The notes under the pieces are model-generated. The model was not told the origin of the DNA and did not search any database. It saw only the letters and a list, made by a program, of their open reading frames with translations. From Candidatus Omnitrophota bacterium (lineage in GTDB: Bacteria > Omnitrophota > Gorgyraeia > Gygaellales > Profunditerraquicolaceae), in contig JAQTQJ010000002.1 in assembly GCA_028712255.1 (NCBI GenBank), positions 86,846 to 150,845 on the forward strand: a stretch of 64,000 nucleotides of DNA, given 5' to 3'. This document shows, one piece after another, positions 59,760-64,000 of this stretch; the first letter of the stretch is position 1, and each line of letters starts with the position of its first letter. The position numbers and the translations under genes are program-made.

Positions 59760-60167
59760 ATGAATAGAAAAGGTTTTACACTCGTCGAAATTATGATCGT
59801 AGTTGCGATTATTGCATTATTAGCTGCGATTGCAGTACCTAATTTGCTTACTGCAAGAAGGACAGCTAATGAGGCAGCAGCAAAAGCTACAGTACGTAGT
59901 TTATCTACTGCGGCAGAAACCTTCTCAACCAGTCACAGTGGTGCCTATCCTACAGCTGTAGGTGCAGGTGGTTTGCAAGATTTTATAGCCTCTGCAGGCA
60001 ACTATTGCGCTGACGCAGGTGGTGGAACTACTGCTGTTCAGGGTTATAACTATGCTTGTACTTTAACTGCAGGCGGTTATACCTTTGTAGCTAGTCCTGT
60101 TACTCAAGGAACAACCGGAAGCGTAACTTATACAGCTTCTACAGGTGGAGTGCTTACACCATTATAA
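59760..60167 (+). CDS. type IV pilin (prepilin N-terminal methylation motif), Ser/Thr/Gly-rich C-terminus
   Basis: KGFTLVEIMIVVAIIALLAAIAVPN; AGGAGGAG RBS. Confidence 0.7.
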   Translation: MNRKGFTLVEIMIVVAIIALLAAIAVPNLLTARRTANEAAAKATVRSLSTAAETFSTSHSGAYPTAVGAGGLQDFIASAGNYCADAGGGTTAVQGYNYACTLTAGGYTFVASPVTQGTTGSVTYTASTGGVLTPL

Positions 60168-60183
60168 AAATTGTTTTTTGTGA

Positions 60184-60222
60184 AAAAGGGGTCGGATCTA
60201 TTAGATCTGGCCCCTTTTTATT
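60184..60222 (+). terminator. rho-independent terminator after the pilin gene
   Basis: AAAGGGGTCGGATCTA-TT-AGATCTGGCCCCTTTT (G.U-compensated) + TTATTT. Confidence 0.5.
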
Positions 60223-60236
60223 TATTAGAGCGAAAG

Positions 60237-60311
60237 TCATCCTGAGGGCCGCAGGCCCGAAGGATCTAGATTCTTCGTCCGTCACTGAAGTGATTGCGGA
60301 CTCAGAATGAC
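60237..60311. repeat. nested palindromic element (family B)
   Basis: GTCATCCTGAGGGCCGCAGGCCCGAAGGATCT-AGATTCTTCG...TCAGAATGAC. Confidence 0.65.
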
Positions 60312-60320
60312 GGGAAAATA

Positions 60321-62261: not shown

Positions 62262-62296
62262 TTGCTAAATACTGTCTTTATGTTATTATAAAAATA

Positions 62297-62740
62297 ATGT
62301 TTAAGCCAAAAACTGGGTTTACACTTATTGAGATAATGATGGTTATGGCCATTGTTTCTCTTCTTGTCTCTGTGGCTATTGTTGAGGGTGTACAATTTAG
62401 AAAACAGGCTAACGAATCTAATTGTATGGCTAATCTTAAGGCTATTGCCAGCGGTTTTGAAGTATATTCAGCACGCCATGCTGGAGTATACGCTCCTGCG
62501 GAGGAAACAAATTTACAATTTCTTATCGACGATAATTGTCTTTTCCAGGATTTAATCAGCATAGGCCAAATCGGTAATTTCCGTTATATCATTAATTCGG
62601 TAAATCCTGCAGGTTATGATATCAAAGCTTTGAGTGTAAATCCGGCACTAGCTGACCATAATTATCAGATTTCTACCGGAGGCATCCTCAAGCGTTCCGA
62701 TACTTCCGTATCCAATGACATGGATTTTAAGGATTTCTAA
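62297..62740 (+). CDS. prepilin-type minor pilin/pseudopilin
   Basis: KTGFTLIEIMMVMAIVSLL; C-terminal ISTGGIL motif shared with neighbours. Confidence 0.65.
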   Translation: MFKPKTGFTLIEIMMVMAIVSLLVSVAIVEGVQFRKQANESNCMANLKAIASGFEVYSARHAGVYAPAEETNLQFLIDDNCLFQDLISIGQIGNFRYIINSVNPAGYDIKALSVNPALADHNYQISTGGILKRSDTSVSNDMDFKDF

Positions 62741-62742
62741 CT

Positions 62743-63156
62743 ATGTTTAATCGACAGGCCAGAAGCTTTGTTACCATTATGATTCTTGTAGCTTTGTTCG
62801 CATTATTATTGCGCATGGCGATACATAAGGTAATCATTTATAATATCCAGCAGAATCAGCTCTTGGCTCAGGTTAACCTCAAGCTACTTTCTACTGCCCT
62901 GGAGAATTATGCTAAGGATAATAAAAATCAGTATCCTGAAAATATCGAGGCTTTTACTAAGAATAAACCTGCTTATTTAGAAAGGAATTATCTGGCTGTT
63001 TCTTCGGTACGTGGTTATCAGTATGATTGCCAGCGCCTTGATCCGGGAGGATATAACTGTTCGGCAACCCCGTTGGATTGTAAATTTACTGGAAAAATGG
63101 TTTACAGTATTTCTACCGGAGGCCTGATCATTGCAGAGAGCTGCGATAAGAAATAA
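62743..63156 (+). CDS. pilin-like protein with degenerate prepilin leader (no Gly-1/Glu+5)
   Basis: RSFVTIMILVALFALLL; C-terminal ISTGGLI paralogous to 62297 product. Confidence 0.45.
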   Translation: MFNRQARSFVTIMILVALFALLLRMAIHKVIIYNIQQNQLLAQVNLKLLSTALENYAKDNKNQYPENIEAFTKNKPAYLERNYLAVSSVRGYQYDCQRLDPGGYNCSATPLDCKFTGKMVYSISTGGLIIAESCDKK

Positions 63157-63499
63157 AAAAGGTTTTACCTTAGTTGAATTAATGGTGGCCGTAGCAATTA
63201 CTCTTTTAGTAATTGTAGGGTCGATTTTGAGTTTTGTGCAACTTATATTTTTAGCTGATTCTAGCGTTAATTTAACCACTGCCGTCAATGATGCGCAATA
63301 TGTCCTTGAACAGCTAAAAGGTGTTAGTTATGGGGCGATATCAGGCTATACAGCGCCAGTTTTTCATAATTTACCAGGGGAAACCGTAGCCCTTATTCGC
63401 AGCGTAGGGGTAAATTTAGCTAATTTAACCGTAAATGTCAGTTGGCAGGAAAAAAATCAGACAAAGAGCTTTTCTTTGTCCACTTGTATTGCTAAATAA
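63131..63499 (+). CDS. prepilin-type pseudopilin
   Basis: KKGFTLVELMVAVAITLLV; TTG start overlapping upstream gene. Confidence 0.6.
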   Translation: MQRAAIRNKKGFTLVELMVAVAITLLVIVGSILSFVQLIFLADSSVNLTTAVNDAQYVLEQLKGVSYGAISGYTAPVFHNLPGETVALIRSVGVNLANLTVNVSWQEKNQTKSFSLSTCIAK

Positions 63500-64000
63500 T
63501 AAACGCGCCTTTACTATTATCGAGATACTTATTTGCGCGATAATCGGTGCTTTTATAGTAACGGCTCTGTTTTATATTTTAAACACTGGACAAAATATAA
63601 ATGATTTAAGTTCGGCTAAGGTTCAGGCTCAGTCACAAGCGCGCAGGGTGAGTGATTGGATTGGGCAAGATTTGCGCCAGGCAGTGGTGTGGGATTTAGC
63701 TAATAATAACCCTAGCGCAACACATATAAAATTCAGGCCGGTATTAGGCTGGGATATTGCGGGCAATACTTACCAGCTGGATGCTAACTATATAGAATAT
63801 AATTATAATGCTGCTGCTAAGATTCTTACTCGAAACCTGGTTAATGGTGCAGGCGCAGTTTTAAACTCATGGGTATTTAATGGGATAGTGGCACAACCAT
63901 TTTTTACGCGCGATGGTTTGGGAAACTTAATTAATTTAGATAATAGCGTAGGAACAAGCAAAAAAATAATTACCTTAATTTCAGTAAGTAAGGTTTCCGA
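63489..64000 (+). CDS. prepilin-type pseudopilin (GspJ/PilW-like), 3' end beyond window
   Basis: NKRAFTIIEILICAIIGAFIV leader; open to window end; probable TTG start 63489. Confidence 0.5.
   Translation, partial: MLNNKRAFTIIEILICAIIGAFIVTALFYILNTGQNINDLSSAKVQAQSQARRVSDWIGQDLRQAVVWDLANNNPSATHIKFRPVLGWDIAGNTYQLDANYIEYNYNAAAKILTRNLVNGAGAVLNSWVFNGIVAQPFFTRDGLGNLINLDNSVGTSKKIITLISVSKVS

Follow-up and report, generated by a model that had tools for sequence, protein, structure and literature searches.

In this work, we examined a locus at positions 59760-64000 of a 64-kb window (the whole stretch of DNA that was analysed), which belongs to the metagenome-assembled genome of an uncultured Omnitrophota bacterium, and in which type IV pilin-like genes surround the gene of a candidate pilin glycosyltransferase. 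Every gene from position 59760 to the window end lies on the + strand, in the following order: a major pilin gene (pil1), a strong terminator, the gene of a 646-aa membrane protein with a tail of tetratricopeptide repeats (TPRs), called the enzyme for brevity, and four further pilin-like genes (pil2 to pil5); coordinates are collected in Table 1. A first-pass annotation, made from the sequence letters, had placed five pilin-like genes here, and five + strand open reading frames (ORFs) were indeed found, four of them with an N_methyl match (E 8e-9 to 8e-5); it had also described a large membrane protein between the pilin genes, and the protein found in that place combines C-terminal TPRs with an N-terminal multi-helix domain carrying 'FIWDDEAL' after its first helix. 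The ORF list starts the enzyme gene at TTG 60294, and the resulting extension, 'MRTQNDGKI', crosses a short palindromic repeat element; since the extension runs through this element it appears to be spurious, and the credible start is ATG 60321 (646 aa), as in the NCBI protein, a 'tetratricopeptide repeat protein' to which the enzyme is 100% identical.

The membrane domain of the enzyme is invisible to Pfam and to sequence searches of the PDB, and its assignment therefore required a structure model. A full-length AlphaFold model (pLDDT 87) displayed fifteen helices in the TPR region, and with this model Foldseek returned only TPR matches (OGT, SPY and APC), the TPR domains of OGT and SPY being the best. 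Because this full-length search of PDB folds was swamped by TPR proteins, residues 1-400 were modelled separately with AlphaFold2 (AF2), giving 11 long helices (pLDDT 88.7, pTM 0.90). The first 31 Foldseek matches of this domain in the PDB were all GT-C glycosyltransferases (TM scores of 0.33-0.57, normalised to the query), namely Pmt4 (E 1.7e-4, TM 0.55), AglB, STT3, ArnT, PglB, DPY19, Pmt1/Pmt2, AftD, EmbA/B/C and AftA, and unrelated transporters appeared only below them, with probabilities < 0.2. According to the model, the membrane domain has a GT-C fold, which bears out the N-terminal GT-C domain proposed by the first-pass annotation.

Regarding topology, as read from the sequence, short Lys/Arg-rich loops near residues 162-166, 201-211, 306-311 and 362-366 ('QNNIKRP', 'LKEKLKKKH', 'YREKNK' and 'HRALRKG') alternate with the loops that bear every conserved motif. 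Since the Lys/Arg-rich loops fall on the opposite side of the membrane, both the conserved motifs and the TPR domain, whose repeats span residues 400-646 (the C-terminal 250 residues, approximately), are predicted to be periplasmic. The first extracytoplasmic loop carries the acidic motif expected of GT-C enzymes ('PFIWDD', D30-D31-E32), and its two Asp residues, previously noticed as a DD/DE loop motif, are invariant in 39 orthologs, together with R67, P68, E132, R140, E185, H274, H342 and Y345; among 75 representatives at 26-42% identity, D30, D31, R67, P68, E185 and P270 are invariant.

The enzyme appears to belong to a very large TMTC-like GT-C/TPR superfamily: at a threshold of E 1e-3, its membrane domain is matched by 70,712 clusters at 50% identity. 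TPRs are present in all of the 75 relatives that were sampled, and among the Pfam matches listed for them only TPR families occur. When the N-terminal domains of six relatives were scanned, those at 30-36% identity matched Pfam PMT_2 (E 5.9e-8 and 4.3e-5), and one 36%-identical relative displayed a weak match to TMTC_DUF1736 (E 0.0033, 17.8 bits vs a cutoff of 27). The superfamily reaches the archaea: a 576-aa protein annotated as hypothetical, encoded on a plasmid of Haladaptatus pallidirubidus (NZ_CP085304.1; L058, 1-6731), is 27% identical to the enzyme over residues 1-237 (E 2e-25) and keeps only the second Asp of the DD pair; BLASTP found no TPR match between it and the window protein. 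Its gene is preceded by genes for GDP-mannose 4,6-dehydratase, an oxidoreductase, an aminotransferase, a GT2 glycosyltransferase and GtrA, the last two being immediately upstream. The classic three-component arrangement combines the synthase of a lipid-phosphate-sugar with a flippase and a GT-C transferase, and the Haladaptatus gene set is likely a three-component system for deoxy-aminosugar glycosylation.

With respect to the pilins, a six-frame motif scan of the window returned pil1, pil2, pil4 and pil5 as the only ORFs with a prepilin motif, and these four display the leader, Phe+1, Glu+5 and hydrophobic helix of type IV pilins, with Ala at -1 in pil5. Pil1 is short and typical of type IVa major pilins; its N-terminal half matches pilins of Geobacter, Myxococcus and Thermus in the PDB, and its Thr/Gly-rich C-terminus ends in TYTASTGGVLTPL. 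The Ser/Thr/Gly-rich C-terminal region noticed in the first pass was confirmed: in 40 orthologs the globular half contains 19% Thr and 8% Ser (27% Ser+Thr) and 28% Gly+Ala, with a conserved Thr-rich end (T119, T123, T125, S/T127, T128 and T133) and two Cys.

Pil1, pil2 and pil3 are paralogs (30-35% identity) sharing a (S/T)TGG(V/I/L) motif, as seen in the C-termini of pil2 ('...YQISTGGIL') and pil3 ('...YSISTGGLI'). The earlier claim that three downstream paralogs bear this motif thus stands for pil2 and pil3 and fails for pil4, which ends in '...FSLSTCIAK', and pil5 is incomplete at the window end. Distant pil1 orthologs that still adjoin the enzyme gene carry variants such as RTGGIM, ESGVIR and TPGGVL; since the motif varies in these adjacency-keeping orthologs, its Gly-Gly-hydrophobic core looks structural and its Ser/Thr dispensable. 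The motif was considered as a glycosylation sequon, which is unlikely given that the Ser/Thr is not kept in distant orthologs retaining the adjacency, and it is probably a structural turn of the pilin family.

In pil3 the leader departs from that of type IV pilins (Ser at -1, Met at +5), and Pfam gives no N_methyl match. Its leader, 'RS/FVTIM', indeed lacks Gly-1 and Glu+5, as had been noted, and in that sense it is degenerate; however, the (K/R)SF(V/I)xIM leader is conserved in 28 orthologs, so that it does not represent decay; the four Cys are conserved too, and pil3 appears to be a maintained non-canonical pilin-like protein. GspK is a tip/priming-type subunit that needs no Glu5. Pil3 could likewise be a tip or priming subunit with no need of Glu5, or an uncleaved membrane partner of the enzyme.

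A scan of GTDB species, each represented by one genome, yielded 57 Omnitrophota loci, in which the conservation of this arrangement was assessed with a motif scan and with tblastn. The first-pass annotation had made its proposal depend on whether the pilin-enzyme neighbourhood is conserved, and it is: in 38 of the 39 loci with an enzyme at least 42% identical to that of the window, a pil1 ortholog (44-93% identical) lies directly upstream on the same strand, the exception being L026. At more distant loci (26-38% identity), a pilin directly precedes the enzyme in 6 of the 16 that were evaluable (L035, L038, L040, the second copy of L043, L047 and L056). Downstream, pil3 follows the enzyme gene in all 32 loci with enough flank, in 30 of them within 1 kb; a pil2 ortholog is found in about half of the related loci, and pil4 and pil5 follow in several. 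Furthermore, a hairpin with a T tail separates the pilin and enzyme genes in 32 of the 39 related loci. At locus L027, a PilX_N-like gene, pilM (E 1e-49), pilN and pilO come after the pil5 ortholog (211 aa), and because the module continues there into these genes we regard it as belonging to an operon for a type IVa pilus. Its flanking genes vary between loci.

Table 1. Features of the pilin-enzyme locus, and residues of the window protein set against TMTC motifs M1-M7 (Table 4 of PMC7801869), which were compared residue by residue.
Feature	Position	Strand	Remarks
Promoter-like site (TTGACA, 17 nt, TACATT, with TG), upstream of pil1	59582..59610	+	consensus match only
pil1, major type IVa pilin, 135 aa, leader MNRKG/FTLVEIM, two Cys	59760..60167	+	N_methyl E 8e-9
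Intrinsic terminator, 17-bp stem then T run, 3' of pil1	60183-60219 (60183..60229 with wider limits)	+	minimum free energy -29.3 kcal/mol, z -7.15
Short palindromic repeat element (GTCATCCTGAG...CTCAGAATGAC), intergenic, about 75 nt	60236..60311	n/a	11-mer enrichment
Enzyme gene, GT-C/TPR membrane protein, 646 aa	60321-62261	+	
Predicted GT-C membrane domain, residues 1-400, 11 helices	60321..61520	+	AF2 model and Foldseek
C-terminal TPR domain, about 7 repeats, predicted periplasmic	61521..62261	+	Pfam TPR_1 E 1e-29
pil2, pilin or minor pilin, 147 aa, canonical leader	62297..62740	+	N_methyl E 4e-7
pil3, pilin-like, 137 aa, non-canonical leader, four Cys	62743..63156	+	without N_methyl match
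pil4, minor pilin, 122 aa, GspI/ComGE-like (weak)	63131..63499	+	N_methyl E 9.5e-9; weak NCBIfam minor-pseudopilin matches
pil5, minor pilin, GspJ/HpsC-like (weak), TTG start, runs past window end	63489..64000	+	N_methyl E 8e-5; weak NCBIfam HpsC and GspJ
M1, DD (TMTC3 31-32)	D30-D31		present
M2, SHKSYRP	GSNFYRP (62-68)		partial, YRP (66-68) kept
TMTC3 segment 118-134, IASLLFAVHPIHT	IASAVFFAASPIHT		same pattern
M3, RxD	R140-A-E142		present as RxE
M4, KE	K184-E185		present
M5, DW			absent; invariant LHM in that loop
M6, PxxP	P328-x5-P334		absent; the residues given are found there
M7, ERxxY	E341-H342-x-x-Y345		partial; conserved Arg replaced by His

Our reading of the observed anatomy, fold, motif conservation and synteny is that the locus is probably a TfpW-like, TMTC-type pilin glycosyltransferase cassette conserved across Omnitrophota, TfpW being the enzyme that O-glycosylates the group IV pilins of Pseudomonas aeruginosa (bioRxiv 10.1101/2020.04.19.049825). 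The locus appears to form the first part of an operon for a type IVa pilus, with the layout of a pilin-accessory cassette. So understood, the cassette is new for Omnitrophota and extends a known system; it is not a new route. We infer that the enzyme of the window is catalytic and that pilin is its acceptor, and the following mechanism is proposed. The terminator between pil1 and the enzyme gene would attenuate accessory expression. The prepilin would be held in the inner membrane by its N-terminal helix, with the globular domain in the periplasm, where the TPR domain would bind it; the GT-C active site would be located where the membrane faces the periplasm and comprise the loop-1 DD, YRP, HTE..GRAE, KE, LHM and EHxxY motifs. 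Before assembly, Ser/Thr of the pilin would then receive sugar from a polyprenyl-phosphate-linked donor, as TfpW does on group IV pilins.

Several observations weigh against this interpretation. The membrane domain has no match in Pfam, even at E 10, none in NCBIfam (in which the whole protein matches TPR families only), and none in the PDB by phmmer or profile search; its hhalign comparison with the window's own ArnT-like protein was weak (probability 17%). At the positions of TMTC motifs M5 and M6, DW and PxxP are absent, and in M7 the conserved Arg is His. The fold in itself says little about the acceptor, since the family numbers about 70,000 clusters at 50% identity and most of its members cannot be pilin-linked. 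Moreover, no donor-synthesis or flippase genes (GtrA/GtrB-like) occur in the window or in the 6-kb flanks of the 57 related loci, a trait shared with TfpW, as such genes are not near its gene either. Finally, the comparison with TfpW draws on its published description, and the modification of Omnitrophota pilins is predicted from genes and models.

The main competing explanation, which we regard as unlikely, is that the enzyme is an active GT-C transferase whose acceptor is not the major pilin, being instead only pil2/pil3, other periplasmic or surface proteins (general O-glycosylation), or a glycan or lipid, in which case the adjacency would reflect co-regulation with the pilus. The location of the enzyme gene between the major and minor pilins favors this explanation, as does the linkage of pil3, which is as tight as that of pil1; likewise, the superfamily is huge and mostly not pilin-linked, distant Omnitrophota paralogs often have no neighbouring pilin, and tandem duplicates occur in L035, L043, L048 and L049. 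However, the order pil1-terminator-enzyme is kept at enzyme identities down to 34% (L038, L040, L047 and L056), a persistence that would be difficult to account for if pil1 had no functional link with the enzyme, and TfpW, the only characterised enzyme of this architecture and position, acts on the major pilin.

A different proposal, for which we hold comparably low expectations, is that of a dedicated TMTC-type enzyme with type IVa pilin as its single cognate substrate, present in Omnitrophota and possibly other phyla, which would have evolved independently of TfpW and would use a different lipid-linked sugar, with an uncleaved, E5-less Pil3 as the membrane adaptor that presents the pilin or primes the assembly of a glycosylated fibre.

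A structural role akin to that of PilF, or an accidental linkage, is less likely than another acceptor. In the former case the enzyme would be mainly a non-catalytic factor of pilus biogenesis, a TPR scaffold or pilotin like PilF, PilW and Tgl, with a degenerate membrane domain as its anchor. JGI gives one ortholog the label 'Tfp pilus assembly protein PilF', and the TPR region has sub-threshold NCBIfam matches to PilW (E 2e-17, 63 bits vs a cutoff of 154) and Tgl; these are generic TPR matches far below the family cutoffs, and no polytopic domain occurs in PilF, PilW and Tgl, which are lipoproteins. The membrane domain, moreover, retains invariant residues of catalytic type across hundreds of orthologs and the 75 distant representatives (DD, R67-P68, K184-E185, H274 and E341-H342), which argues for a conserved active site and makes the scaffold role very improbable. 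It is hardly credible that the adjacency is a phylogenetic hold-over, a gene order inherited in one lineage with no functional coupling: all 57 loci (57/57) do come from one phylum, so the samples are not independent, but the pil1-enzyme-pil3 core persists where the flanks differ (the exopolysaccharide synthase cluster, for instance, is found in the window only), the terminator between the two genes is conserved, and the same arrangement arose or persists in Pseudomonadota (TfpW).

Several additional features were observed at the related loci and within the window. Paralogous GT-C/TPR genes are found in pairs, back to back in L035 (4810-8320), L048 (6001-9824) and L049 (6001-9109), and about 3.2 kb apart in L043 (6001-12685); the L035 pair follows a pilin, and the L043 copies have a pilin between them that directly precedes the second. 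Such pairs may allow more than one sugar or acceptor. The 11-mer of the palindromic repeat, GTCATYCTGAG (CTCAGRATGAC at the other boundary), has 5 copies in the window vs 0.03 expected, and single copies at 43181, 46200(-) and 52391 are located at or beside gene ends, that at 43181 overlapping the 3' end of the 41733-43190 ORF. Promoter-like sites are no more numerous in the region than expected from shuffled sequence.

Upstream of the locus, at 49321-59553, there is a signalling/exopolysaccharide cluster, which other species do not keep beside the pilin module. Its products are a histidine kinase with Cache/PAS domains, three single-domain response regulators, a CofD-like protein, a fusion of a response regulator with an NAD-epimerase, another response regulator, an outer-membrane barrel resembling YaiO, a protein with HEAT repeats and a PgaC/BcsA-like GT2 synthase; the GT2 synthase, HEAT and YaiO genes were considered as part of the system and rejected, as they adjoin the module in no other locus. 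A second GT-C protein of the window is encoded at 34421-36821, where a polysaccharide deacetylase gene (PF01522, E 5e-37) overlaps that of a 551-aa PMT/PMT_2 enzyme (E 4e-14), a pair resembling ArnD/ArnT or NaxD/FlmK-type transfer of aminosugars to lipid. Other genes include a trehalose set at 6319-12269 (a 743-aa GT20, OtsA-like fusion, a trehalose phosphatase, a DUF5752 protein and a TreT-type trehalose synthase) and, at 14610-15545 (-), an IS481-like transposase with a helix-turn-helix and an rve integrase core.

Type IVa pili are considered a key element in the attached, predatory or parasitic way of life of Omnitrophota, and the survey of this phylum makes no mention of glycosylation or of the enzyme gene (PMC10066038). 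The value of the locus lies in the extension of TfpW-type glycosylation to a distant uncultured phylum, whose pili are believed to serve in attachment to hosts, and in a TMTC-like enzyme of bacterial origin for which a candidate substrate is obvious. If the GT-C/TPR enzyme of the cassette does glycosylate the pilin, the TfpW mechanism would be widespread and not an oddity of Pseudomonadota, with a bearing on phage evasion and on host or partner recognition; a sugar coat on Omnitrophota pili would have to be considered in structural and 'conductive pilin' predictions, and the choice of protein acceptors by TMTC-like TPR glycosyltransferases could be studied in a compact enzyme-substrate pair from bacteria. 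Should the enzyme be a dedicated TMTC-type one, it would give the TMTC class, which is poorly understood, its first bacterial model whose acceptor is defined, and pilus glycosylation would constitute a phylum-wide trait of host-attached nanobacteria. If it is just another TfpW homolog, the result would still be a useful correction of annotation, current labels being 'tetratricopeptide repeat protein' or 'PilF'.

Among known systems, TfpW provides the closest comparison. In P. aeruginosa Pa5196 and PA7, pilA is immediately followed by the tfpW gene (Villela et al., bioRxiv 10.1101/2020.04.19.049825), whose product is a GT-C enzyme of 646 aa with 11 predicted helices, a C-terminal periplasmic TPR domain and an essential DDX motif in periplasmic loop 1, whose membrane part models on ArnT and whose TPR part models on OGT (bioRxiv 10.1101/2020.04.19.049825). 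The enzyme of the window has the same length, number of helices, loop-1 DD(x), predicted periplasmic TPR domain and gene position after a pilin, and it likewise has OGT as the best structural match of its TPRs and ArnT-type GT-C enzymes as matches of its membrane part. Given the donor pathway, TfpW is necessary and sufficient for the addition of alpha-1,5-D-arabinofuranose oligomers to several pilin Ser/Thr residues (bioRxiv 10.1101/2020.04.19.049825). The first-pass annotation had taken a GT-C/TPR enzyme beside a pilin for a route different from the known one through Wzy_C-type enzymes, which does not hold, as TfpW already glycosylates pilin with the same architecture and gene position. In P. 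aeruginosa, the pilin-accessory cassettes have in common a Rho-independent terminator after the pilin gene, which attenuates accessory-gene expression (PMC11841053), and the cassette order pilin gene, terminator, enzyme gene is reproduced in Omnitrophota (adjacency in 38/39 loci, terminator in 32/39). The YX6PFX7P motif that precedes the TPR domain of TfpW is absent from the window protein in its exact form; at a comparable place, in the last-but-one periplasmic loop, W321-x6-P328-x5-P334, with nearly invariant W and P, resembles the EmbC form of the proline motif quoted for TfpW (bioRxiv 10.1101/2020.04.19.049825).

The two systems differ in phylum (Pseudomonadota vs Omnitrophota), in that no genes of a D-arabinofuranose pathway (DPPR synthase, DprE1/2) were seen near the window enzyme, in the fusion of the Omnitrophota cassette to a minor-pilin and pilMNO operon, and in the partner protein, which is the three-helix TfpX for TfpW and the E5-less pilin-like pil3 here. 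An analogy of pil3 with TfpX/TfpY was considered and rejected on structural grounds: there are three transmembrane helices in TfpX, TfpY and TfpZ, but a single one in pil3, which is a paralog of the pilins.

The Wzy_C-type enzymes TfpO/PilO and PglL are also inner-membrane proteins that modify pilin Ser/Thr in the periplasm, and tfpO, like the enzyme gene here, directly follows pilA behind a terminator. They belong, however, to an unrelated fold and family, transfer preassembled oligosaccharides linked to undecaprenyl-pyrophosphate and have no TPR domain; no protein of the locus matched a Wzy_C or O-antigen ligase domain in Pfam or NCBIfam. Gtr three-component systems (GtrA flippase, GtrB polyprenyl-phosphate glycosyltransferase and a GT-C transferase) are those which the neighbourhood of the Haladaptatus homolog fits, and the same donor logic would be expected here; in contrast, their acceptors are usually glycans and not proteins, and no GtrA/GtrB gene adjoins the Omnitrophota cassette.

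The last comparison is with TMTC1-4, eukaryotic protein O-mannosyltransferases of the endoplasmic reticulum that belong to the GT-C/PMT clan. The enzyme had been called TMTC-like in the first pass, which is correct in substance, since 11 helices are followed by lumenal/periplasmic TPRs in both and the motifs stand at nearly the residue numbers of human TMTC3. The window protein is not a member of the Pfam TMTC family, since it has no match at E <= 10 to TMTC_DUF1736 (PF08409), the loop between helices 7 and 8. The shared residues are DD and YRPL in loop EL1, R-x-(D/E) in EL2, K-E in EL3 and E-x-x-x-Y in EL5, and the pattern 'IAS..F.A..PIHT(EAV)' of TMTC3 residues 118-134 is identical in the window protein (PIHTEAV..GRAE, 128-142). 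Besides lacking PxxP and the metal motif DW, the window protein has Asn-Phe for the His-Lys of SHKSYRP and His for the Arg of ERxxY, and these substitutions make a donor sugar other than that of TMTC proteins likely. A further difference is that the window enzyme is bacterial, with a single candidate acceptor encoded next door.

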